DNA of 64,000 nucleotides from Promethearchaeota archaeon (lineage in GTDB: Archaea > Asgardarchaeota > Heimdallarchaeia > Hodarchaeales > Hodarchaeaceae), in contig JBHLMN010000001.1 of NCBI GenBank assembly GCA_048938105.1, positions 64,001-128,000 of the forward strand, given 5' to 3'. The position numbers were made by a program, and so were the translations under genes. Positions 24,199 through 39,479 of the stretch are shown piece after piece (position 1 is the first letter of the stretch; every line of letters starts with the position of its first letter). The notes beneath the pieces were generated by a model that had not been told where the DNA came from, searched no databases, and saw only the letters and a program-made list of their open reading frames with translations.

Positions 24199-24681
24199 CT
24201 ATTTCTTAACTACTTGAAAATGCTTTCCTTTCATGATTCCATACTGTTGAATTAAATCTCTATTCTTAGACTTAAATTTAAAATCACCAGTATCCTTGCG
24301 TAAAAATCCTACATAAAATTCTTTTTCATCCTTTTCTAACCATAAATGTATGAAATTTGCAAATTGTGGGTCATCAGATGGTTTTATGCTAAATTTACCT
24401 AGATTTTGTCCTTCGTCTGTAATTTTGAGAGAATACTCAATAACTGGTTTTTCTTCTGTCGATACTTTACGTGGTTTTGTTTTTTCTCTTAATTTCTTCT
24501 CTTCTTCGTCTAAATAAGCAATAGCTAATTGTGTTGCCTCTTTAATTGCATCTTTCATTACTGAGGGATCACTAACATCCAACTCATACTCTATGAAGAT
24601 CTCTTCAGGTTCAAATTGCCTCACTTGAATTTTACGACTCCTCCCTATACGTTTAGGCATTATACGCCATTTATCTTTCAT
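24199..24681 (-). CDS. Hypothetical protein
   Basis: 160-aa ORF in the same transcription unit as nfn; function unknown. Confidence 0.7.
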   Translation of the reverse strand: MKDKWRIMPKRIGRSRKIQVRQFEPEEIFIEYELDVSDPSVMKDAIKEATQLAIAYLDEEEKKLREKTKPRKVSTEEKPVIEYSLKITDEGQNLGKFSIKPSDDPQFANFIHLWLEKDEKEFYVGFLRKDTGDFKFKSKNRDLIQQYGIMKGKHFQVVKK

Positions 24682-24788: not shown

Positions 24789-26210
24789 TTATTTCTCGAC
24801 TTGCACTGTTTCTATTTTCCCTAGATCTTTCTCTAATATCATCTCATGGATGGCCTTGGCTGCTTTTCGTCCAGCTTCCATTGCAAGAATAACAGTAGCC
24901 GCTCCAGTAGCAGCATCACCCCCAGTATAAACTCGTTCTCGTGTTGTTTTTCCTGTTTCTTCGTTATGAACCAATGTACCCCACTTTGTAGATTCAAGAC
25001 CTGAAGTTGTTTGGGTAATTAATTGATTTGGTCTTTGGCCAATAGCTATGATTACGGTATCTACAGGAAAAATAAATTCGGTATTAGGGATTGGAATGGG
25101 TCTTCTACGACCAGATTCATCTTTTTCACCCAATTGCATACGTAAACACTTTAATCCAATTACATTCCCTTTTTTATCACCGAGGATTTCCACTGGGGAT
25201 GTTAGTTCTCCTATAAGAACTCCCTCTTCTTTAGCGTTAATGATTTCCTCCAATCTTGCTGGACATTCTCCCTCAGTACGACGATAAATAATATCTACTT
25301 CACGAGCCCCTAGGCGGAGTGCAGTCCGAGCAGAATCCATGGCAACGTTACCTGCCCCAATAACGGCTACTTTTTCACCCACAGACACAGGAGTGTCATA
25401 TTCAGGAAATTGATATGCTTTAAGAAGATTTACACGAGTTAAGAATTCATTTGCAGAATAAACTCCTCTTAAATTCTCTCCAGGTACTCTTAAAAAGTTT
25501 GGTGTCCCTGCACCAGAAGCAATATATACCGCATTGAATTTGTTTTCATTTAAAAGCTCATCAACTGTAACTGTCTTTCCTATTAGAATATCTTTCTCTA
25601 ATCTAACCCCTAGACTTTGTACATATTCTACTTCTTCTTTTACAATTTGTTTTGGCATTCTAAATTCAGGAATTCCATAAATCAATACTCCCCCAAATTC
25701 ATGTAATGCTTCATATACTACCACTTCATGACCATAATTTGCCAACTCAGCTGCACAAGTCAAACCTGAGGGACCAGAGCCAACAATAGCAACTTTGGTT
25801 TTCAATCTTTTATGTGGGGAAGGTTCAGGTCGTTTCCCATGATCTGCAACAAATCTTTCCAGTGCGCCGATACTGATTGCATTGGGGTGTATACAAAACT
25901 CTTGACATTGATTCTCTTGCGGACAAACCCGCCCTGTGATAGCTGGTAGACTGTTAGTAGATAGAATTATCTCTTTTGCCGCATTAATGTCTCCTTCTCT
26001 CATTTTAAGTATAAAATTGGGTATTTGAACATTAACAGGGCATCCTTGAATACACCGAGGCCGTTTACACTGGAGACACCGTGATGCTTCCTCCAGTGCC
26101 TCCTCCTCTGTAAATCCCAGAGCAACCTCTTCAAAGTTTCTAATTCGTTCGTCTGGTTCTTGAACTGCCATACGGACTCTTTGTTTCTTAGTTTTCTTTT
26201 TCTTTGACAT
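24789..26210 (-). CDS. nfnB: NfnB/SudA (GltD-like) large subunit of NADH-dependent ferredoxin:NADP+ oxidoreductase
   Basis: RCLQC..C..GCPV, GRVCPQE.QC, GSGPSG, YGIPEFR, GAGNVAMD, GAATVILAM; adjacent to an NfnA-like gene. Confidence 0.88.
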   Translation of the reverse strand: MSKKKKTKKQRVRMAVQEPDERIRNFEEVALGFTEEEALEEASRCLQCKRPRCIQGCPVNVQIPNFILKMREGDINAAKEIILSTNSLPAITGRVCPQENQCQEFCIHPNAISIGALERFVADHGKRPEPSPHKRLKTKVAIVGSGPSGLTCAAELANYGHEVVVYEALHEFGGVLIYGIPEFRMPKQIVKEEVEYVQSLGVRLEKDILIGKTVTVDELLNENKFNAVYIASGAGTPNFLRVPGENLRGVYSANEFLTRVNLLKAYQFPEYDTPVSVGEKVAVIGAGNVAMDSARTALRLGAREVDIIYRRTEGECPARLEEIINAKEEGVLIGELTSPVEILGDKKGNVIGLKCLRMQLGEKDESGRRRPIPIPNTEFIFPVDTVIIAIGQRPNQLITQTTSGLESTKWGTLVHNEETGKTTRERVYTGGDAATGAATVILAMEAGRKAAKAIHEMILEKDLGKIETVQVEK

Positions 26211-26224
26211 TGTTTTTGCTCCTT

Positions 26225-28072
26225 CTATGACCTCTCTCGGGCCATTTTTTCACCAGCTATTCGTTCTTCATATAAGTAGGCCCTTGATCTACGCGTTAAT
26301 TCCTCGAAATCTACCTTAAGACCATCAAAATTAGGCCCATCCACACAAGCGAATTTAACCTCACCGCCAACAGTCACCCGACAGGCACCACACATTCCAG
26401 TACCATCTACCATTATAGGCGCTAAACTTACTGTAGTAGGTATGTTATGTTCCTTGGTGAAAGCACATGTGAACTTCATCATGGGAATTGGACCAACAGC
26501 AACGACATGGTCGAAATGCCTTCCTTCTTCAACAAAGTGTTTTAAAATATCAAGGCCAAATCCGTGATGGCCCTCTGTACCATCATCAGTAGCAATATGG
26601 AGCTCATCACTCACGGCCCGCATCTCATTACGACATATTAAAAGTGAAGATGTTCTCGCTGATATTATACTTACCACATAATTCCCCAACTCTTTCAAAG
26701 CTTTAGTTTTAGGTAATACTGGTGCAACACCACAACCACCACCTAATACAGCTACTGTACCCCACTTCTTAATTTCGACGGGTTTTCCTAAAGGGCCCAA
26801 GAGATTGAGAATGTGATCACCAGCTTCCATTGTCCCCATAAGCTTGGTACTCTTCCCTATTTTTTGAAAAATCAGTGTTATTGTACCCTTTTCCTTATCG
26901 CTATCAGCTATAGTAAGGGGAATTCGTTCACCATTCTGAATTACTCTAACAATAATAAATTGTCCTGGTTGAGTTTTTTTTGCAATCAATGGTGCTTTAA
27001 CAATCCATCTAACAATTTCTGGAGATAAATCCTCTTTTTCAATGATAGTACATCTACCTTCAGTAAATCTTTGAACACGGATTGGTTCTTCCTTTTTTTC
27101 TTCTTCTTGAACCTCTTTCTCTTCTAACTTAGTAAGATACCTTGAAATTTCTTCTGCTGCTTTAATCCCCTCTGCAGCCCCAACACCTACTACTGAGTCC
27201 CCTCTTGTTGCACTACCTGCTGCAAAAACACCAGGAATATTTGTATCTTGATTAGGTGAATTTACAATAATTCTTCCCTGAGGAGTAGTCGCTAAACCTG
27301 CATCTTGGAATAGCTCGCGGTTTGTGTTCTTACTACTCAGAATCAATACCATCTCTGTTAAAATAGAATATTGTTTTCCGTCCCTGTTTTTGAGACGTGT
27401 TTTTTTCAACCTATCAGTTCCTTCAAAATATAAAACTTCATGTGAATATAGGACTTCAACAAAACTTTCATTTAATCTTCTCATAAGAGCAGGATGGGCA
27501 TCAAAAGCGTCTCGAACAGTAATCAGGTAGACATGCGCGCCCATGGCATCATAATGAAGCGCATTTCGGACAGCCCACGATGTATGTCCAATTACTGCAA
27601 CATTTTTTTCTGTATAATCTCCCTCTGGAAGAGAATAGAATACTCCTTTTCCTCTAAATTTTCCCTCACCAGGAATATCAAGTTTCTTAGGTTGGAGGCC
27701 CGTGGCAATCAATACAGCTCTACTTTCGTACTTAAATTCTTCAGTAAAGAATTCTCCTCTTGTGACTTGGGTATAAATCCGCTTTAGGGGATCATTAAGC
27801 TCAAGATTACTAACTTTTTCGGCATAATTGATAGTTGCATGATACTTTGCTTGTTTAGCCATTTTATCCAGTAGCTCTTGCCGAGTAATGCTAAAGAAGC
27901 CTGGGTAGCCATCTACAGCCATACTGCCTGCGGTAGCTGTTCCAGAACGTGCATCAAGAACAAGAACATATAGTCCTAGTTCTGCAGCCCGTATAGCACC
28001 AGAAAGGCCTGCTGGCCCACCTCCTACAACAATGAGATCCCATATCTGTGAACTCAAAATATTCTTCTCCAA
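26225..28072 (-). CDS. Fusion: thioredoxin-reductase-like flavoprotein domain + NfnA/SudB
   Basis: N half has GGGPAG, ATG, GVFAAG. C half has PGQF, ERIPLT, GPLG, TDDG, MVDGTGMCGACR, CVDGP. Confidence 0.88.
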   Translation of the reverse strand: MEKNILSSQIWDLIVVGGGPAGLSGAIRAAELGLYVLVLDARSGTATAGSMAVDGYPGFFSITRQELLDKMAKQAKYHATINYAEKVSNLELNDPLKRIYTQVTRGEFFTEEFKYESRAVLIATGLQPKKLDIPGEGKFRGKGVFYSLPEGDYTEKNVAVIGHTSWAVRNALHYDAMGAHVYLITVRDAFDAHPALMRRLNESFVEVLYSHEVLYFEGTDRLKKTRLKNRDGKQYSILTEMVLILSSKNTNRELFQDAGLATTPQGRIIVNSPNQDTNIPGVFAAGSATRGDSVVGVGAAEGIKAAEEISRYLTKLEEKEVQEEEKKEEPIRVQRFTEGRCTIIEKEDLSPEIVRWIVKAPLIAKKTQPGQFIIVRVIQNGERIPLTIADSDKEKGTITLIFQKIGKSTKLMGTMEAGDHILNLLGPLGKPVEIKKWGTVAVLGGGCGVAPVLPKTKALKELGNYVVSIISARTSSLLICRNEMRAVSDELHIATDDGTEGHHGFGLDILKHFVEEGRHFDHVVAVGPIPMMKFTCAFTKEHNIPTTVSLAPIMVDGTGMCGACRVTVGGEVKFACVDGPNFDGLKVDFEELTRRSRAYLYEERIAGEKMARERS

Positions 28073-28443: not shown

Positions 28444-29382
28444 ATGAATATCGATCCCTTTTTTGAAACGAATATCAAAACAACACCAAATAAGCAAACT
28501 TTCGTATCAAAAGTGGGCTTGATAGGGGTTTTTTTATGTTCTTTTGATACTACTTATGGTTTACAGATCCTATTTTCCATTCCATCAAAATTACAGCATG
28601 ATCAAAATGAAATTAACATCCTGAAGACACATTGTGTATGGAAAATAGAAAATGTACCTCTCCGAATTGACCTGAAGTTTTCAGAATTTGTATATTCAGC
28701 TTTTCAGCTCCAAACGACTTCACAGGAAATAACACCACCGAAGGATCAACCAATTTATGGTATTGTAATAAAAAATTGGAAAGATATTAATCCCATTCCA
28801 AATGAGGTTTATCTTGATTTTAAAACCACTTTAGAATCAAGTATCGCTTCAGAGCTCGGATTGTTATACAAGCGTGAACGATTAGAATCAAATCCTATTA
28901 AAAAAAAGGAATACAAAAAGCTTGTAAAACTCACAGAAAAAACTGAAAGACAACTAAAATCTATGTGGAAGAAATTCTGTATCCGTATTGGTGAAAAGAT
29001 TGATACTTTTACCACAGAGATAATTCCAAGCCCAGTTAATTCTTCCATGGTTCCAATAGAAACAAGTCAATGTGCTCAGGAGTTATTTAAACAGAAAATA
29101 ACCATGAGGATCTTATCATCAGAGGATACAGGGGGATTAATGGTAATTTTAGTTAATCAGAGTGAGCATTTGAAGGATGTATTGATTCAGGTATCAAGAA
29201 GAACTGAATTTTTCAGTGAACCTATCTGGGAGCAAGAACTTGAAGATTGGCCGTTGAAAGAGGATTTAATTTTGGAATTTCCCAGATCCGATGTAGTCGA
29301 AAATTATCTCATCAGAATTAGTAGCAGAAAAACAACGATAGACATAAAATCTCTTGAGGTTGGTACAGCTTCTGTCAGTTAA
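28444..29382 (+). CDS. uDENN/longin-like protein + shared C-terminal beta domain
   Basis: IGVFLCSFDTTYGLQILFSIP matches the uDENN F-D-x-x-x-G pattern; C-terminal domain homologous to those of 29483 and 31035. Confidence 0.65.
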   Translation: MNIDPFFETNIKTTPNKQTFVSKVGLIGVFLCSFDTTYGLQILFSIPSKLQHDQNEINILKTHCVWKIENVPLRIDLKFSEFVYSAFQLQTTSQEITPPKDQPIYGIVIKNWKDINPIPNEVYLDFKTTLESSIASELGLLYKRERLESNPIKKKEYKKLVKLTEKTERQLKSMWKKFCIRIGEKIDTFTTEIIPSPVNSSMVPIETSQCAQELFKQKITMRILSSEDTGGLMVILVNQSEHLKDVLIQVSRRTEFFSEPIWEQELEDWPLKEDLILEFPRSDVVENYLIRISSRKTTIDIKSLEVGTASVS

Positions 29383-29482
29383 CTTAAAGATCACTAGAAT
29401 TAACAATAAAGTTGCAAAAACATTTTAGGTTTTGTAAGATTGATGTATTGCATCAGAGAAAGCTCTTATAATCATTTAAAAA

Positions 29483-30556
29483 TTGCCTAATCTCGAAAAA
29501 AAGGAGAAATATCTAGTTATGAGACATGGGGATCTGTCCCAAGCCACAGATATTGATCAATCAACCACAAATGATACTTATGGATTTTTTCTCTACTTTT
29601 TTGATGAAATTCAAGGGCATGTCCCCCTTTTTGCTTATCCACAAGAATTACTTAATAATAAAAACGAAAAACAGATTATTTCGATTCACAGTATTTGGTG
29701 GCATCAAGATAAGTTCTTAGAATTAAATAAGTTTATCTCCATGGATCTGGAATTAGGAGGAGTTATTTACTGTGCTACTCTCATTTTATGTCAAACTAGG
29801 AGAACTAAAAGACGGTCTGGTATGGATTCTCAGAAATGGCAAGCAGAGAGATTTGTTTTAATCGTAAAAGCCCCCTCGGCGGTCTCTTTCATTGCTCAAG
29901 AGATTTTACATGAATTAAAAACGAGGATACAAGGAGTTATTGGCGAAAATTTGTGTTTTCTAGTAGAAGACCACCTTAAAATGCAAGAAGATCCAGAGTT
30001 TGGAGAACTTCTGAAAAAAAAATCTAATCATATTGAACAAGAGCTTGTAAAGCTGTGTGTCTCGTTAATTCCTAAAACCCCTATATCAAAACTTGACTTT
30101 CAGTTAGAAGGAGGGTCCCAAGAAAAAATAGATGAATTGTTGGCTCCAACCATTCAAACACCACAAGAACAACAAAAGCCCCTGAAAAAACCCCAATTAA
30201 GATTTTCAATACCCATGGGGGATAAGCATAAAATAAAAAGGGAAAAACACGAGGTAACTCTAGCTCCAGAAGCAAAACGTGTAAAAGTAGTAAAAATCAA
30301 GCGTTCTGAAGATGATAAGTTCGTTCAAGTAACTGTTCGTAATAATAGTTTAGATGTTATTAACAATGCTCTTCTAAAAATATATGAATCACAGGGATTT
30401 TTCGGAAACGACATTCTTATTTCGAGGCTGAAGAAATGGGCACCAAATGAGGAGATTTCCATTGAATTTGAGCTAGCTAATACAACTGGAATTATCTATT
30501 TCCTGAAGATTGAAGATGAAAAAGAAACGATAAAAGTAAAAAGAATCGTTGGATAG
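29483..30556 (+). CDS. uDENN/longin-like protein + shared C-terminal beta domain
   Basis: YGFFLYFFDEIQGHVPLFAYP; paralogous to the upstream gene (HSIWW vs HCVWK; MDLEL vs IDLKF). Confidence 0.65.
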   Translation: MPNLEKKEKYLVMRHGDLSQATDIDQSTTNDTYGFFLYFFDEIQGHVPLFAYPQELLNNKNEKQIISIHSIWWHQDKFLELNKFISMDLELGGVIYCATLILCQTRRTKRRSGMDSQKWQAERFVLIVKAPSAVSFIAQEILHELKTRIQGVIGENLCFLVEDHLKMQEDPEFGELLKKKSNHIEQELVKLCVSLIPKTPISKLDFQLEGGSQEKIDELLAPTIQTPQEQQKPLKKPQLRFSIPMGDKHKIKREKHEVTLAPEAKRVKVVKIKRSEDDKFVQVTVRNNSLDVINNALLKIYESQGFFGNDILISRLKKWAPNEEISIEFELANTTGIIYFLKIEDEKETIKVKRIVG

Positions 30557-30567
30557 GATGTAGTAAC

Positions 30568-31017
30568 ATGTATTCAACTAAAGTAAAAGACCTAATGAAT
30601 AAAGAAATAATTGCTGTTAGTGTCAACGATAACCTTGATAAGGTCGCCCAATTGATGTTTGAAAATCATATCGGCTCAATATTAGTACACCAGGATCATG
30701 AACCAATTGGAATTATTACAAAGCGAGATATAATTGAAAGAGTGATATTAAATTGTCAAGATCCTTGTGAAGTAAAAGCAAAAGATGTCGCGACAAGAAA
30801 CCTTATTACGATATCTTCAGGAGAAACCATTAAAGATGCTTTGATGTTGATGTATAAACATAAGATCAAGAGAGTTCTTGTGAAAGATCCTGAAAGTTTT
30901 GAACTAGTAGGAATAATCACAACATATGATTTAATTGCAGCCTTCAACGCATTGGAGCTCCAGTCTTCGTCTCCAAACGAATTCTCATCCTCCATAAATA
31001 AAAAATCCGACATCTAG
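30568..31017 (+). CDS. CBS-pair protein
   Basis: VKDLM, IGSILV, GIITKRD, IKRVLV, VGIITTYDL. Confidence 0.9.
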   Translation: MYSTKVKDLMNKEIIAVSVNDNLDKVAQLMFENHIGSILVHQDHEPIGIITKRDIIERVILNCQDPCEVKAKDVATRNLITISSGETIKDALMLMYKHKIKRVLVKDPESFELVGIITTYDLIAAFNALELQSSSPNEFSSSINKKSDI

Positions 31018-31034
31018 CTTAAGGATGGTAAAAA

Positions 31035-32510
31035 ATGACTGAAATTAACCAAGAACAAGGTCAGTTGATCAGTTATCGATTATCTAAACGGAAATTACAG
31101 GGAAATAAAGAAGCAAAATTTGCTACGCTGAAAAAACAAGTCATTGACACTGGATTGTGCAGCGCATGTGGAGCCTGTGTTGCTTCATGTGTTGAAAATG
31201 CGCTAGAAATGATTAATGATCGACCACAATTAACAGGAAAATGCACAGCTTGTGGAGTCTGTGTCCACCAATGTCCCAAGACAAAGACTACTGTCCCTCA
31301 ACTAGTGGGCAATTTTATTGAAGCTTTCCGTGCAAAAAGTCTTCTTTCTGAAGTAGTTGGTCAGGATGGAGGAGTGGTGACTAGTCTTTTGATCTACTTA
31401 TTGCGTGAGGGAATGATAGACGGTGCAGTAATAACCGCAAAGGATGATTCAGAACATTGGAAACCAAAACCTATCATAGCCACCACGGAAGATCAAATAT
31501 TATCTTCTTCGGGATCTATTTATAGTCAAAGTTCAGCAGTGGGAAAACTCCTTGAAGCTATCAAATCGGGATTGAATTCTATTGCTTTTGTCGGATGTCC
31601 ATGCAATATTGATGCTGTAAATAAAATGCAAAGCTCTCCATACGGACTAGTCAGATTATTTATGCGAAGTTCAGTTCTTAAAATCGGTCTTTTCTGTATG
31701 GATGCTTTCTCTTATGAAAGATTACGGCATTTTGTAGAGGAAGTTGATAAAGTCCCTCTGAAAGATATAGAGAAGATGACAATTTCTAAGGGAAAGTTTC
31801 ACATGATACAGGAAAGTGGGGAGACGATCAGTCACCCAGTAAAAGAAATGGATAGATTACGAGCAAGCTCCTGTCATTATTGTATTGATTTTTCCAGTGA
31901 AAATGCGGACATTAGTGTTGGATCTGTTGGGGCTCCAGAGGGATACAATACAATCCTAGTCCGCACAGGATTGGGATTGGAAATTCTTCAAGATGCTGCT
32001 GATAATGGTTATATCGAACTTCAACCAATCACAAGAAACCAACTTAATCCAGTATTAAAACTTGCTAACCTAAAGAAAGTCCAATTATACACCGTCAATC
32101 GTCGTCGATCATACACTTTTCAGGTTCCTTCATCTCTACCAGCAGAACGCCAACCCCTACCAACAAGAGAAATCTTAGTTGAAAAAGGAGTCAGTGGGGT
32201 AAAAAGACGCCGAATCGTACGAATACAAAGTTCAAAAATCATTGATGAAGGCCGTAATATCCAGGTTACCTTACAAAATCGGAGTGGTAAAGTTTTAGAA
32301 CGAGTTCAAGTACGGATAACTCTATTAGCAGGAGAATTGTTTGAATCACATAACTGGGAAACTACAATCCGCGAATGGTTCCCTGCAGAGGCTTTAGACT
32401 TCGAATTTCCACGTTTTGATGACAATAGTGAGTATATAGTGAGTCTCACGGATACAGAAGGGAAGCTGTTAACAAAAAAAGTTGCTGTTGCAGATCTTTT
32501 AGAAGAATAA
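31035..32510 (+). CDS. FrhB/FdhB-family coenzyme F420 oxidoreductase subunit with 2[4Fe-4S] domain and extra C-terminal beta domain
   Basis: CSACGACVASC, CTACGVCVHQCP, GQDGGVVT, VGCPC, IGLFC, CHYCIDF, ADISVGSVG. Confidence 0.9.
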   Translation: MTEINQEQGQLISYRLSKRKLQGNKEAKFATLKKQVIDTGLCSACGACVASCVENALEMINDRPQLTGKCTACGVCVHQCPKTKTTVPQLVGNFIEAFRAKSLLSEVVGQDGGVVTSLLIYLLREGMIDGAVITAKDDSEHWKPKPIIATTEDQILSSSGSIYSQSSAVGKLLEAIKSGLNSIAFVGCPCNIDAVNKMQSSPYGLVRLFMRSSVLKIGLFCMDAFSYERLRHFVEEVDKVPLKDIEKMTISKGKFHMIQESGETISHPVKEMDRLRASSCHYCIDFSSENADISVGSVGAPEGYNTILVRTGLGLEILQDAADNGYIELQPITRNQLNPVLKLANLKKVQLYTVNRRRSYTFQVPSSLPAERQPLPTREILVEKGVSGVKRRRIVRIQSSKIIDEGRNIQVTLQNRSGKVLERVQVRITLLAGELFESHNWETTIREWFPAEALDFEFPRFDDNSEYIVSLTDTEGKLLTKKVAVADLLEE

Positions 32511-32538
32511 AAAAACTAGCGATAATAGGAAATCTCTT

Positions 32539-33441
32539 TTATTCCTCTCTACTAGCTTCAATAATTAATTCCGCAAACACTTCCATATCTTTTAACAAAG
32601 CTTCGATGTCCTCTGGAGGATCAATAGCTGCTCCTTCATCTACCATAATGAGAACTGCAAGCACAAAACTAAAAATGTGTAATTGTAATTTCTTTGTATC
32701 AGAAACTGCGGAAAACGAAGCTGAATCACTTGTGAGGAAATTCTCCCGTAAGACATTACAAGAAAGAATATAATCACGCAAATCCTCACGGAGCTGGATT
32801 CCCGTCGAAAAACCCTTGATACTGTGAGTAATAACATTCCCATTCACATCACTCACTATAATCTTTGAATTCAGCTTCATAAGGTGCTTTTGAGCATGCT
32901 CAACACTATCTCTCAATTGATCAAAGTCTGAAATCAAAATTTGGCGAAAGACTTCACTTAATTCTTCTTGTCGATAAATGGATGTAATGAAAGATTCAGG
33001 TTCATATTCATGGATAAATGGTAATTCTCTGGCTTTGTCGAGATTCTCTTCAAGCTGTTCCTTAGGATATTCCTCAGTATCATACTTATGATAGAAAATA
33101 ATTAATCGGGGTTCTCCACCATTTTCCTTAATAGCGGAATACACCTGCTTGAAGTAATCATCTGCTTTGTTAAAATCCTCAGGATGATGGAGATCAAGGA
33201 CAAGAATTAAAACCGTGGTGTTGGCAAGAAGTTTGGGGGTCTCAAGGTAAGATTGGCGATATTTTTCTTGTCCACCAAAATCCCAGAGGGAAATTTGAAG
33301 ACCTAGATAGTTATGGGAGCGCGTTTCATACATGATAGTCGGCCCGAACTCCCTAGTCTGAATAGGGGTCATTCCACCTAATGTCGTTGAATAGATTGAC
33401 GTTTTACCACAACCACTTAGTCCAACAAGTGAAATCTTCAT
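32539..33441 (-). CDS. Rag/Gtr-like small GTPase with C-terminal roadblock/longin-like domain
   Basis: G1 GLSGCGKTS, G2 PT, G3 WDFGGQ, G4 HKYD, G5 TSIY. Confidence 0.88.
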   Translation of the reverse strand: MKISLVGLSGCGKTSIYSTTLGGMTPIQTREFGPTIMYETRSHNYLGLQISLWDFGGQEKYRQSYLETPKLLANTTVLILVLDLHHPEDFNKADDYFKQVYSAIKENGGEPRLIIFYHKYDTEEYPKEQLEENLDKARELPFIHEYEPESFITSIYRQEELSEVFRQILISDFDQLRDSVEHAQKHLMKLNSKIIVSDVNGNVITHSIKGFSTGIQLREDLRDYILSCNVLRENFLTSDSASFSAVSDTKKLQLHIFSFVLAVLIMVDEGAAIDPPEDIEALLKDMEVFAELIIEASREE

Positions 33442-35773: not shown

Positions 35774-36778
35774 ATGAGTCACTACTTAAAACAATTGAAA
35801 ACTCAGAGTTCTCGGAAAATAATACTTTTAGGTCTTTCGCAAGCAGGAAAAACATCTATTCGTGATGTAGTCTTTGAAGGGAAAGCACCTGAAGAAACTC
35901 AAAATTATGCAGCGACTTTGAACTATGAACGGCAGATTGAGCAAGTTGCGGATGAGCCAATCACCGTTATGGATTTGGGAGGACAGGAAGTCTTCTTGAA
36001 GCGTTTTTTGAGTAGTATGAGTTCGTTTATCTTCAGTAATGTTGCTGTGTTAGTTTTTATATGTGATATTGCGACTCCTGAGAAATTTCCCGCTTCACTA
36101 AAAGCATTTGTTGAAGGTGTTACTCGGTTAGAAGAGATGTCAGACGTGCAACCCGCTATTTATGTCCTGTTACACAAGACAGATCTTATGCCCGACCTTA
36201 CACAAAGGGCTGAAAGGATGGAATTCTTGATGGAAATGTTTCAGGATGCGGCAGCAACAAAGAGTATAACATTTTTGCAAACATCTATATATGACAATTC
36301 AATTCATGAGGCATTTAAGCGAATAACTGCAGAGGCAAGTGAAGTCATTCCTGAAGTAGAAGATATAGAAAAAGAAGAAGATTTAGAAGCTATTAAACAG
36401 AAACTTAGACTTCGACCGATCCAACAGGTTCTTCACACACTCAAGTTTATGAATCGTCTGGATGAGGTCATTTTAATATCATTAGATGATCCAAACTTTA
36501 AGATTAACGCATCAGAATTAGAGGATAATGAAATCAGGCATATATTGACTCTCTTAGACAAATCAAACGACCTAAGATTAGTTACTGGTTCAAAATCCGA
36601 ATTAGAGCGATTAGGATCAGTAATGATGTATAAATCCAAGATTCAACCGAATCATTTGTTGATTCTAATCTCTAGAGACGATAAATCAATGCTAGAAACT
36701 AGAAACCTTCAAGAAATTGAAGAAACCGTTGATCTTCTATCTAATCAACTTGAATCAATGCTTAAAACACCAATTTAG
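35774..36778 (+). CDS. Rag-like small GTPase + roadblock-like domain
   Basis: GLSQAGKTS, DLGGQ, HKTD, TSIYD. Confidence 0.9.
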   Translation: MSHYLKQLKTQSSRKIILLGLSQAGKTSIRDVVFEGKAPEETQNYAATLNYERQIEQVADEPITVMDLGGQEVFLKRFLSSMSSFIFSNVAVLVFICDIATPEKFPASLKAFVEGVTRLEEMSDVQPAIYVLLHKTDLMPDLTQRAERMEFLMEMFQDAAATKSITFLQTSIYDNSIHEAFKRITAEASEVIPEVEDIEKEEDLEAIKQKLRLRPIQQVLHTLKFMNRLDEVILISLDDPNFKINASELEDNEIRHILTLLDKSNDLRLVTGSKSELERLGSVMMYKSKIQPNHLLILISRDDKSMLETRNLQEIEETVDLLSNQLESMLKTPI

Positions 36779-36788
36779 AGGAGTAAAT

Positions 36789-37715
36789 TTGCGTCAAAAC
36801 CTTATCGCGCTGTCAGGATTATCCCATTCAGGAAAGGATCTTCTATTCAACCAACTCATGAAGCTAGGGAGGTCTGAACCTGATCTAAAGATTTTACAGA
36901 ATGTAGTCTTCTTTGATTGGTTAAACACGTCTTTTAAAAAAGAAGACATGTATTTTGAAACTTTACTTCCATCTATTCGTGAAAAGATCTTAATGAAAAT
37001 AAATACTCTGATTTATGTCCATGACATCTCATACCAACTACTAGATGAGATATCCACTGACTTTCAGAATATAACTTCCAATATCAGTACTATTAATAAA
37101 AACTATCAAGTGGTTCTTTTATTAAATCGAGGACATTTAATCCATAATGAAGCAGAGCGTAATAAGGTAAAGAATGTAGTTATTGCGCGCTTGCAAGAAT
37201 TTTTTCCTCAAGAAATTCCCTCTTACATTGTTTCGCTTAAGGGACCAGATGAACAAAGATTAACTAACCATATTTTTACACAAATAATCAAAAAAGCCTC
37301 CGAATTTAGCAAACAACTTTACTTTGAAGAACAGTTGAATCTAGATCAAGAAAAACAGCTTCAAGTCGAGAATATTTTGAGTGAGAAAATGAACACCTAT
37401 GGTTTCGCTGGAGCTTTTTTATTGTCTCGAAACCATAACATTATTCTAGCTAAAGGAAAGAGTCAAAGCTGGCAGGAGAAGGTTGGACCCCAAATTATTC
37501 GCATGTTAGATCAATATGAAGCATTTGATGTTACTCCGCAGGCAAAAATGAACATTCTTCGAATTGAAGATTTTTTAATGTTAACTCAAACTATTACTAA
37601 AGGAATGAAATTGATATTAATTGGAATAGAACCTACACTTAATCTTGAATCCTACAGCACTATAGAACAAATATGCCTCGAGATATCAAATGAGCTTATT
37701 TCAAAGCTGAATTGA
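36789..37715 (+). CDS. Degenerate (pseudo) Rag-like GTPase + roadblock-like domain
   Basis: GLSHSGKD, no DxxG, LNRGH in the G4 position; C-terminal GFAGAFLLSRNHNIILA is roadblock-like. Start moved to TTG 36789, after GAGGAG. Confidence 0.65.
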   Translation: MRQNLIALSGLSHSGKDLLFNQLMKLGRSEPDLKILQNVVFFDWLNTSFKKEDMYFETLLPSIREKILMKINTLIYVHDISYQLLDEISTDFQNITSNISTINKNYQVVLLLNRGHLIHNEAERNKVKNVVIARLQEFFPQEIPSYIVSLKGPDEQRLTNHIFTQIIKKASEFSKQLYFEEQLNLDQEKQLQVENILSEKMNTYGFAGAFLLSRNHNIILAKGKSQSWQEKVGPQIIRMLDQYEAFDVTPQAKMNILRIEDFLMLTQTITKGMKLILIGIEPTLNLESYSTIEQICLEISNELISKLN

Positions 37716-38533
37716 ATCATAAAGCCTGTGAAAAGATGAAGCAAATGATTTCTGGACTTATTGTAACTGCGATGACCGATATGGGGCCATATCCTGTACT
37801 TAACTTATCCCCAATCTCTGAGGACACAACGGTTAAACTAAGTGTCATAGGAATGACTATCCTCTCTATGGGAGCAGGAACAGTAGCAGAAAAACAGCAT
37901 TATCGTTTACATGGTTCCATACCTATTCCTGATTCTCCCACTTTAGAAGCCTTGGCAATGTCTTTCACGGTTACTCCAACAAAGACCAGTGATGTACGCA
38001 TTGACCAACATGGCCGTGAATCAACCATCTGGTTATTATTCGAGTCTAAAGATCGTAATCGTATTTTTCTTCAACATAGTTCCATCGAGAAAGCCCTAAA
38101 AGAGGAAATTAGTACTATCCACATCGAAGATAACCTCTCTGATCCTACTATCATGAACCGAATTCTTGATCGTATTAAAGAAATGCTTAGTACGGCAGAA
38201 ATCCCTACAGAGACACCCTATTATATTCCTGAAAGAGGAGGATTGGAATTCTATACTATCAATGCAGATGGTGACCTAATCGAACTGGAAACTAGTGTTG
38301 ACCTCAGTGCTTATTCTATATTGATGGTAATCAATGCTGTTGTTAAACGAATATTTCTAATAAAACTAGATGATTCTACCCCCCAGCGACTCATGTTTTT
38401 AGCCGGCCGATCAGCTTCAAACCTAAATGTAAACCGCTTTAAAAATGAGTTTACGATTCGTGATGTATCAGATCCAATCGAACGTGATATGATTCTTGAA
38501 AAAATTGGGATCATTCAAAAGATTGGCGTTTAA
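37712..38533 (+). CDS. Longin/uDENN-like domain fused to gelsolin-like domain
   Basis: N-terminal SGLIVTAMTDMGPYPV; C-terminal FYTINADGDLIEL...KRIFLIK...RLMFLAGRSA resembles Asgard single gelsolin domains. Confidence 0.55.
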   Translation: MNHKACEKMKQMISGLIVTAMTDMGPYPVLNLSPISEDTTVKLSVIGMTILSMGAGTVAEKQHYRLHGSIPIPDSPTLEALAMSFTVTPTKTSDVRIDQHGRESTIWLLFESKDRNRIFLQHSSIEKALKEEISTIHIEDNLSDPTIMNRILDRIKEMLSTAEIPTETPYYIPERGGLEFYTINADGDLIELETSVDLSAYSILMVINAVVKRIFLIKLDDSTPQRLMFLAGRSASNLNVNRFKNEFTIRDVSDPIERDMILEKIGIIQKIGV

Positions 38534-38549
38534 ATGAGGTCTAGTAAAA

Positions 38550-39479
38550 ATGTCTTATCTTGCGAGGAAAAAAACAAGTAAAATTCTGATCTTAGGGTTA
38601 GCAAAATCAGGAAAATCAACTATCATACGAGTGGTAACAGAAGGAATAATCCCCTCGAAAGACGAAAATTATCATGCTACCATTGATTATGAACGCAAAC
38701 AAAAGGTCATTGCTGGCACAGAGCTCACTCTTTTCGATTTAGGGGGGCAGACAGCCTTCCTTGACCGGTTCACTGGAGAATTATCAGAATTTATTTTTAG
38801 CGGAGTTAGAACTTTGGTGTTTGTGGTTGATTCAATCGAAATAAAAGATATTTCAAGGGCAAAATATTACTTAGATTTATCATTAAAGAAATTAGCCCAA
38901 TTTAGTCCTGAAGCTTCTGTCTTCATCTTTCAACATAAAACAGACCTGATTCCTAAAAAGCTTCAAGATGAAGTCAGAAAAACAATCAGGGATTATCTCT
39001 CAACAGGAGTTTCTCAACAGCTTAAATTTTATTCAACTTCCGTTTTTTCTGACTCTGTCTTTAAAGCGATGGGAGATGTATACGCTGAAGCCAGTGGTGC
39101 ACGTAAAACTCTAAGACCATTACTAGAAACCTTCATTCGCCATAATGCGGCAGATATGGCACAGATATTCACAAAGGAAGGCGCACCCCTAACACAAGTG
39201 AAGGATATCTCAAAATTTGACCATATATCTTTATCAGAGGTAAAAAACTTTTTTGACGCAGTTGTAGAACGCTTAGCAAATTCTGAAAGCCAAAGATCAA
39301 CATCTGTTCTTGTAGAATCAGATCGCCGTGTATTCATCATTAGATTTATGGAGAGTGGTTTAGCTTTATTCTTTGGATTTCCTAAAGAACGCCTCAGGGA
39401 GAAAAATGAGCAAATCCCTTCTCTTTATAACAAAGTACTCGCATTCAGTTCTCAATTAAAAAGTATGATAGAATCTTAG
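38550..39479 (+). CDS. Rag-like small GTPase + roadblock-like domain
   Basis: GLAKSGKST, DLGGQ, HKTD, TSVF; tail AQIFTKEGAPL. Confidence 0.9.
   Translation: MSYLARKKTSKILILGLAKSGKSTIIRVVTEGIIPSKDENYHATIDYERKQKVIAGTELTLFDLGGQTAFLDRFTGELSEFIFSGVRTLVFVVDSIEIKDISRAKYYLDLSLKKLAQFSPEASVFIFQHKTDLIPKKLQDEVRKTIRDYLSTGVSQQLKFYSTSVFSDSVFKAMGDVYAEASGARKTLRPLLETFIRHNAADMAQIFTKEGAPLTQVKDISKFDHISLSEVKNFFDAVVERLANSESQRSTSVLVESDRRVFIIRFMESGLALFFGFPKERLREKNEQIPSLYNKVLAFSSQLKSMIES

Follow-up and report, generated by a model that had tools for sequence, protein, structure and literature searches.

A 64-kb stretch of a Hodarchaeales genome (positions 64,001-128,000 of contig JBHLMN010000001.1; hereafter the window) carries, at 28444-33441, five genes, A to E. 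We read them, with moderate confidence, as the form that a widespread Asgard signalling module, centred on a single orthologous Rag-family GTPase (the product of gene E), takes in Hodarchaeales. Proteins of the module are marked by a family-specific immunoglobulin (Ig)-like tail, which is found on the longin protein B, on a second protein and on one soluble Fe-S flavoenzyme. The second tail protein is the B paralogue A in the studied locus and an arrestin-like protein elsewhere, the flavoenzyme (gene D) is FrhB-like here and NfnB-like in sister genomes, and a CBS-pair protein (gene C) travels with B or is fused to it. Because these genes are syntenic across many Asgard families and because longin, tail and CBS domains also occur as a single fusion protein, a predicted functional link between the longin-tail protein, the CBS protein, the tail-bearing redox enzyme and the Rag-type GTPase is supported.

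Asgard genomes are rich in Rag-, Arf- and Rab-like GTPases, longins and roadblock proteins, and the pairings of regulators with GTPases are unknown. Gene order rarely helps: in the cultured Asgard strain MK-D1, small GTPase genes as a rule do not share operons with longin or roadblock genes (Tran et al., PMC10933270). The cluster described here pairs one Rag-type GTPase with a specific longin, CBS protein, arrestin-like protein and redox enzyme. What would be new is a longin-Rag regulatory module with an unprecedented shared putative docking domain and a redox-enzyme member.

The shared tail and its conservation across Asgard archaea

The source assembly comprises 5.85 Mb and is 99% complete, and all coordinates refer to the whole window. 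Open reading frames (ORFs) A (28444-29382; 312 amino acids (aa)), B (29519-30556; 345 aa), C (30568-31017; 149 aa) and D (31035-32510; 491 aa) run on the forward strand, with 11 nucleotides (nt) between B and C, 17 nt between C and D and a looser gap of ~100-136 nt between A and B. Gene E (32539-33441; 300 aa) lies on the reverse strand and converges on D across a 28-nt gap. The first ORF call for B began at TTG 29483; this start was dropped, as paralogues and database entries begin at ATG 29519, which is most likely the true start and gives the 345-aa product. A scan for promoters and terminators found no excess over shuffled controls, using patterns that represent the bacterial consensus and are uninformative for an archaeon.

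Proteins A, B and D end in homologous domains, as had been proposed in the initial annotation, which was made from the sequence without database searches. The tails lie at 29077-29361 in A (aa 212-306), 30263-30553 in B (aa 249-345) and 32190-32489 in D (aa 386-485), all on the forward strand; they were delimited by BLASTP and, for A and B, by AlphaFold2 (AF2) models. BLASTP of the last ~100 residues relates A to B (E-value 4e-7), A to D (9e-7) and B to D (3e-6), with 26-29% identity over 69-97 residues of a domain of ~95 aa. When a profile of the three tails was run against all six frames of the whole 5.85-Mb genome, it recovered A, B, D and two paralogues of B at E-values <=1e-20 (2e-20 or better), and the next match had an E-value of only 0.34. 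Chance similarity is ruled out by the pairwise values together with the profile statistics.

The domain is also unrecognised, as the initial annotation had held, with no Pfam or NCBIfam model covering the tail in A, B or D, and it is indeed beta-rich. In the AF2 models it forms a seven-strand beta-sandwich (residues 219-306 of A and 255-344 of B) at a predicted local distance difference test score (pLDDT) of ~80-89. Its neighbours in fold space, found with VIA-align, are many unrelated Ig-like sandwiches at Z 7.8-9.5, including DUF3244, accessory domains of GH2 and GH3, the transglutaminase C domain, domain 3 of HAP2 and the GAE domains of BBS7 and BBS9. Among 1.84 billion representative proteins, a narrow five-sequence tail profile found 57 matches at E-values <=1e-3. 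The weakest of these (3e-5 to 1e-4) are CARDB/NEW3 and NPCBM_assoc repeat proteins, and the tail itself has no Pfam match to CARDB or NPCBM_assoc. The most fitting description is that of a divergent Ig-like E-set member without a name of its own. The tail always stands C-terminal to other domains, followed only by CBS domains in fusions, and its carriers are always cytosolic proteins without signal peptides.

Gene D encodes an N-terminal 2x[4Fe-4S] ferredoxin domain, FrhB_FdhB_N and FrhB_FdhB_C domains that score above the Pfam cut-offs, a linker and the tail, and it belongs to the FrhB/FdhB family. It falls below every NCBIfam equivalog cut-off, those of FrhB and FpoF included: the FrhB subfamily model scores 252.8 bits against a cut-off of 269, and FpoF models align over residues 35-348 at 161 bits against cut-offs of 444-475. 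The domain order, with two [4Fe-4S] clusters placed N-terminally, is that of FpoF; D differs in carrying the tail, in having no hydrogenase or Fpo partner genes next to it and in being swapped for an NfnB-type enzyme in sister genomes. Judged by its sequence, D is a working enzyme and no relic, because all 12 cluster cysteines are invariant in orthologues of only 43-48% identity. F420 is a plausible substrate because the genome encodes CofH (above cut-off), two copies of CofE, and CofD. We took CofH and CofE as the markers of F420 biosynthesis because the CofD family PF01933 also matches control genomes without F420 and is therefore unspecific. Gene C, placed between the tail genes as a CBS pair in the initial annotation, is just that (Pfam CBS 89.9 bits, E-value 1.2e-25, two stretches).

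To see how the locus is kept among close relatives, we compared it with 18 related loci, 17 from genomes of the same GTDB genus and one from a metagenomic contig. Full-length A has family members in 17 of the 20 other genomes of the genus and in none of the 62 other genomes of the class (Heimdallarchaeia). A, B and the CBS gene are kept in all 18 related loci, with C always next to B, and they form a common core with a set of genes from which they are divergently transcribed; this set runs on one strand and comprises orf328, Memo and orf160, followed by an NfnB-like gene and the TrxR-NfnA fusion. Two forms of the locus occur. The first (eight loci, the studied one counted) continues with D, E, a major facilitator superfamily (MFS) transporter and a Rag-like four-gene set. 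In the second (ten loci) the place of D is taken by an NfnB-type enzyme of 577 aa (TIGR01316, 593 bits, above cut-off), which bears the tail at residues ~476-572, together with a convergent NfnA-like gene. E lies 0-7 kb away in all 18 loci, at ~5-7 kb in the second form.

Each same-genus locus has exactly three tails, those of A, B and one redox enzyme. In a tree of the tails these fall into A, B and redox classes, and the FrhB and NfnB tails, that of D among them, stand together on one side of a branch with support of 83/85. The redox enzyme is exchangeable and the tail is not.

A broad profile of 16 tail sequences extends this picture across the phylum; such a search of Asgard genomes had been suggested in the initial annotation. 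The tail is present in 176 of 399 Asgard genomes, mostly in three copies each, and in all or nearly all members of families that we number f9, f13-f18, f20 (128/135) and f21. Narrow profiles had understated this range, with the five-sequence tail profile making the domain look very rare and full-length A confining it to one genus, and the description of the tail as specific to Hodarchaeales was overturned by the 16-sequence profile. As to synteny across Heimdallarchaeia, A, B, CBS and a tail-bearing redox enzyme are together in 18 of 18 loci, and comparable clusters occur in other Asgard families; the same profile found the tail in none of 61 genomes from the six other Heimdallarchaeial families.

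In the other families it is the redox enzyme and the GTPase that are most often adjacent. The FrhB-tail protein (485-514 aa) is followed directly, on the same strand, by the E orthologue in f13, f14, f15, f17 and f20 (four of four genomes checked), with hidden Markov model (HMM) E-values for the E orthologues of about 1e-143 to 1e-149; in f32, E lies on the opposite strand, no more than 1.3 kb from the FrhB-tail gene. A protein of 376-406 aa that also ends in the tail usually comes after E. Its N-terminal part is arrestin/Vps26-like, with Pfam Arrestin_C matching three orthologues at E-values of 0.001-0.004 and a fourth at 0.075, and with Atlas feature scores of 0.91-0.92 to arrestin clusters. 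At least seven families cluster the FrhB-tail, the E-type Rag and the arrestin-like tail protein, often together with CBS and B-like longin-tail genes; the latter two are contiguous with the cluster in f14, f15, f17 and partly f16, and lie 6-60 kb off in f13 and f20. A single polypeptide of 631-641 aa joins the B-like longin, the tail and four CBS domains in f16, f17 and one further bin. A Peptidase_C25 (gingipain-like) gene product of 673-849 aa also occurs in or beside the cluster in two other Asgard families, encoded between the B-like/CBS genes and the FrhB-tail gene (L028 11059-13080 and L029 6639-9188).

Longin proteins A and B and the GTPase E

The initial annotation described the N-terminal parts of the three tail proteins as unrelated. 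This holds for D, which is FrhB-like, and fails for A and B, which are homologous over their full length (hhalign probability 99.5, E-value 2.6e-23, 278 columns) and share one architecture in the AF2 models, in which a longin domain leads through a long helical hairpin and then a disordered linker to the tail. In A (pLDDT 70.6) the longin domain spans aa ~24-148 and the hairpin extends to aa ~189; the B model has a pLDDT of 72.9. A Foldseek search with the whole A model returned mostly low-scoring, mixed matches, and we instead compared the models domain by domain with 48,161 PDB representatives in VIA-align. Both proteins have the longin fold (beta-beta-alpha-beta-beta-beta-alpha, ~120-140 residues), matching longins of known structure at Z 8-11.4 over 117-148 aligned residues. 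The best matches of A are an Asgard Roadblock-Longin protein (8yqg_B, Z 11.4), C9orf72-SMCR8 (10.3) and Lst4 (10.1), followed by GATOR1 chain B (10.1), FNIP2 (10.0) and the SEA complex (9.7). Those of B are GATOR1 (8fw5_B, 10.4), SEA (8adl_S, 9.8) and FLCN (6nzd_H, 9.6).

The longin part of the earlier label 'uDENN/longin' was therefore upheld, with the FLCN/NPRL2/SMCR8 group nearest by fold. 'uDENN' is the wrong label for A and B because no DENN core follows the longin domain in the AF2 models, and neither protein has a DENN match in Pfam. A shape search of the ESM Atlas points in a similar direction, returning unnamed Asgard clusters first, then a Heimdall cluster and then eukaryotic NPR2 and SMCR8, at template-modelling scores of 0.39-0.49. 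The sole leads to membership in the Folliculin/NPR2 families are Atlas clusters that carry them in 19-23% of members, the Heimdall cluster having 23% with Pfam Folliculin. The 55 homologues of A are every one named hypothetical.

Twenty diverse Asgard sequences show that B-like proteins share two motifs, E..GH.PL..YP in strands 1-2 and S.R.K.R.G in the beta4-beta5 loop. The loop (29795-29842, forward strand; aa 93-108 of B) is rich in arginine, contains the invariant residues R95, R99 and G101, and lies between predicted strands at 82-92 and 109-119; it is a candidate arginine finger, and a catalytic role for it is our inference. The G and H of the first motif are at least 90% conserved among B-like proteins. 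Protein A keeps only the invariant glycine and has no conserved arginine in its beta4-beta5 loop.

The genome encodes two more full-length, tail-bearing paralogues of B, of 341 and 340 aa (G000:C6:392094-395360 and G000:C41:245599-248862). One is flanked on one side by a membrane Fe-S protein that has two CxxCxxC motifs and on the other by a putative hydrogenase maturation protease, and the second paralogue adjoins what looks like an aconitase-like gene. A 237-aa B-like protein without the tail (P0124) also turned up.

The identification of E as a Rag-like GTPase converging on the end of the A-D operon was borne out. Its top GTPase family in Pfam is Gtr1_RagA (76.9 bits, cut-off 22), ahead of Arf (45.7), and among PDB entries it matches an Asgard RagA-like protein (8yl2, E-value 6.8e-15), human RagA (1.2e-13), Gtr1 (1.9e-12) and Arf1 (1e-6). 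The G1 (GLSGCGKTS), G3 (DFGGQ) and G4 (HKYD) motifs are present, and the G domain with its HKxD motif places E in the Rag/Gtr family. The C-terminal extension of 110 residues is probably a roadblock domain. Orthologues of E are ~50% identical in Loki-, Hel-, Frey-, Hermod-, Odin- and Hodarchaeal bins.

Co-folding, also proposed in the initial annotation, was run on the combination A+B+E: A (20-312) and B (15-345) were modelled together with E and GTP, with E as the scored partner. The median ipSAE was 0.58 (runs of 0.72, 0.45 and 0.58), the best control, in a set that included one with B replaced, reached 0.01, contacts agreed to at least 86% between runs, and the partner pLDDT was at least 82. 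In a benchmark, the mark that this score passes was cleared by 58 out of 80 complexes of solved structure and by 2 out of 110 mismatches; only seven of these 80 complexes, and both of the passing mismatches, scored 0.60 or below. The prediction may also profit from memorised solved complexes of Rag with GATOR1 and FLCN. Co-folding thus lends weak support to the binding of E by A and B, and modestly raises the likelihood of an A-B-E link.

Possible mechanism and competing explanations

The model that we propose for such a module would be as follows. A and B would pair through their longin domains, like NPRL2-NPRL3 or FLCN-FNIP, and the pair would bind the G domain of E, where the Arg-rich loop of B could act on the nucleotide state, more likely as a GTPase-activating protein (GAP) than in the role of a guanine nucleotide exchange factor. 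The homologous tails would dock the three tail proteins to each other or to a common site and so bring the redox enzyme into the complex, where it might read, or be controlled by, the state of ferredoxin, F420 or NADPH; the CBS pair would add the input of an adenylate-type ligand. In its boldest form, which we offer as a tentative possibility, the E orthologue would be a metabolic switch in many Asgard archaea, coupled to redox carriers (F420, ferredoxin, NADPH) by the docking domain and the Fe-S flavoenzyme, to adenylates by the CBS protein and to an NPRL2/FLCN-like longin as its GAP, and the whole would be an archaeal forerunner of Rag-GATOR1/FLCN sensing that predates TOR.

The closest known systems are GATOR1 (NPRL2-NPRL3-DEPDC5) and FLCN-FNIP, the longin GAP complexes for Rag GTPases. 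As in these complexes, two paralogous longin proteins, here encoded side by side, are associated with a Rag-family GTPase, which in this case is the genomic partner; the best folds for A and B are those of NPRL2, Npr2, FLCN, FNIP2 and Lst4; and the Arg-rich loop is present in B only, just as NPRL2 and FLCN have an arginine finger and NPRL3 and FNIP have none. However, there is no detectable sequence similarity, and B has G-H-x-P instead of a GP motif. The module also has no DENN or NPRL2 C-terminal domain, DEPDC5, Ragulator or TOR (TOR-like kinases were not searched for), and, unlike the eukaryotic complexes, it has a helical hairpin and an Ig-like tail behind the longin domain and a redox enzyme and a CBS protein in the set. 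The likeness to TORC1 signalling would therefore be only partial. With AMPK gamma and other CBS adenylate sensors the module shares a CBS pair (four CBS domains if fused) tied to a probable regulatory complex, but it has no kinase partner, and the CBS association is known here from gene order and fusion alone.

Asgard longins of the FLCN/SMCR8 type and NPRL2-like longins have been described that are structurally like eukaryotic GAP longins, with a conserved glycine motif and arginine, and a possible role in regulating Asgard Rag or Arf-related GTPases has been suggested for them (Liu et al., bioRxiv 10.1101/2020.10.19.343400; PMC12290439). Those studies report longin+DENN proteins, NPRL2-like proteins, two-component fusions and an operon of LAMTOR1-like, Rab-like and DENN genes; in contrast to the present cluster, no such tail, no FrhB-like, NfnB-like or arrestin-like carriers and no link to a Rag-family GTPase were described. 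The literature that we found on Asgard longins, Rag GTPases, GATOR1, arrestins and FrhB, whose coverage is incomplete, gives no account of the tail, its carriers or the cluster.

Several observations weigh against the reading of the cluster as a Rag-centred signalling module. The first concern the longin proteins. For B, the fold scores of GAP longins are tied with those of AP-3 sigma (Z 9.6) and Sec22 (9.1). Pfam at E-values <=1 gives nothing relevant for A, B and ten diverse B-like proteins, the Folliculin (PF11704) and NPR2 (PF06218) families included, and the best match in sequence and profile searches of the PDB with the A and B families has an E-value of 0.14, to unrelated proteins. The equivalence of the Arg-rich loop of B to FLCN R164 and NPRL2 R78 is a presumption. 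Moreover, GAP longins are marked by a GP motif where strand 2 begins, next to the arginine finger (PMC12290439), and the G-H-x-P of B resembles this motif but is not its strict form.

The tail and the gene order add further difficulties. Most of the conserved tail residues (N, FF, W, EF and Y) look structural, and because of this no binding surface could be pinpointed. In the studied genome E is on the opposite strand, and in f20 the B-like gene can be 13-60 kb from the FrhB-E pair. One same-genus genome, 94% complete, keeps the FrhB-tail gene with no A, B, CBS gene or E at the locus, and family f9 has the FrhB-tail and no E orthologue; the FrhB-tail enzyme can therefore exist alone. Finally, the redox chemistry need not be that of F420: the description of D as an F420 oxidoreductase in the initial annotation finds backing in its FrhB domains, its intact cysteines and the F420 genes of the genome, but is weakened by the tail on an NfnB-type NADPH enzyme in 10 of the 18 related loci.

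One rival explanation is that the cluster is a proto-adaptor or recruitment system and not a sensor, in which E-GTP recruits longin and arrestin/Vps26-like adaptors as Arf and Arl recruit AP, retromer and the BBSome, the tails being akin to appendage (GAE/ear) domains and the client being the FrhB-tail enzyme, which has the layout of the F420H2 input module FpoF and would be put onto, or taken off, a membrane complex. The longin scores for AP sigma/mu, delta-COP and Sec22 nearly equal those for GAP longins, the third tail protein is arrestin/Vps26-like in most lineages, and the alignment of D to FpoF models, though far under their cut-offs, covers residues 35-348. The tail likewise resembles the GAE domains of BBS7 and BBS9 (Z 7.8-8.7), and Pfam GAE_BBS1 matches it weakly (E-value 0.015), but these fold scores are no better than those of many unrelated Ig-like domains. 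The cluster holds no membrane anchor or coat scaffold, ligand sensing is suggested by the CBS protein as a constant partner and by the CBS fusions, and the conserved Arg-rich loop of B suits a catalytic regulator better than a passive adaptor. We consider recruitment of this kind unlikely.

It also seems improbable to us that the system is an accessory of redox enzymes, with A, B and the CBS protein as scaffolds or allosteric regulators of Fe-S flavoenzymes, the tails as oligomerisation domains and the GTPase as a mere conserved neighbour. Within the genus, redox genes do flank the cluster on both sides (NfnAB-like upstream, FrhB-like or NfnAB-like downstream), one B paralogue sits beside the membrane Fe-S protein and putative maturation protease, and the FrhB-tail enzyme can persist without A, B or E. 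But no adjacency is better conserved than that of the FrhB-tail gene and the E orthologue behind it, which share a strand in five other families, and longin domains are known almost only as platforms or regulators of GTPases (PMC3747258). The fall of the E co-fold score to 0.01 when B was replaced is a further, weak argument for a GTPase partner. Least probable of all is that domain shuffling scattered the tail, as a generic Ig-like domain of the CARDB/NEW3 type without a shared function, and that its co-occurrence among related genomes is a historical accident: multi-repeat CARDB/NPCBM_assoc proteins among the weakest profile matches, the many unrelated Ig-like folds and the non-independence of related genomes would agree with this, but three tails per genome recur across families in which these proteins are only 25-50% identical, the tail is retained through exchanges both of the enzyme and of the second partner (longin or arrestin-like), and it is always C-terminal and cytosolic without signal peptides, unlike CARDB repeats.

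If the link between the longins, the tail proteins and E that the signalling reading proposes is real, the Rag-longin logic would already have existed in archaea, with metabolic inputs (redox carriers and adenylates) unlike the amino-acid inputs of eukaryotes. The cluster would then offer concrete constructs for biochemistry, and the shared domain, which can be deleted or swapped, would be a handle for testing assembly. Tests in culture may be possible because Promethearchaeota, the phylum to which cultured Asgard strains belong, supply most of the B-like clusters of the Atlas.

Neighbouring genes

Upstream of A and divergent from it, at 24789-28072 on the reverse strand, Pfam and NCBIfam identify an NfnAB-like pair, one gene encoding a 615-aa protein with NfnA fused behind a TrxR-like domain and the other an NfnB/GltD-like protein (473 aa). 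Related loci that reach that far have the pair in the same arrangement. Beyond it, a 160-aa ORF at 24199-24681 (reverse strand), with only weak Hint and MutS_IV matches in Pfam, is conserved in almost every related locus, where Memo and the NfnB-like gene flank it.

Downstream, four further genes on the forward strand (35774-39479) are tightly packed and encode a Rag-like protein of 334 aa, a degenerate Rag-like protein of 332 aa, a 273-aa protein of unknown type and a Rag-like protein of 309 aa; the three Rag-like products score 122, 26.8 and 117 bits against Gtr1_RagA, and the degenerate gene overlaps the first. The set is kept downstream in the FrhB-type loci that reach that far, and also in the sister genome that has no A, B or E. 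In that 94%-complete genome (G062:C4:31000-50999) the FrhB-tail gene stands between Memo/orf160 and the MFS/Rag-like set, the NfnAB-like pair is gone as well, and the locus resembles a partial deletion of the module that arose in nature.

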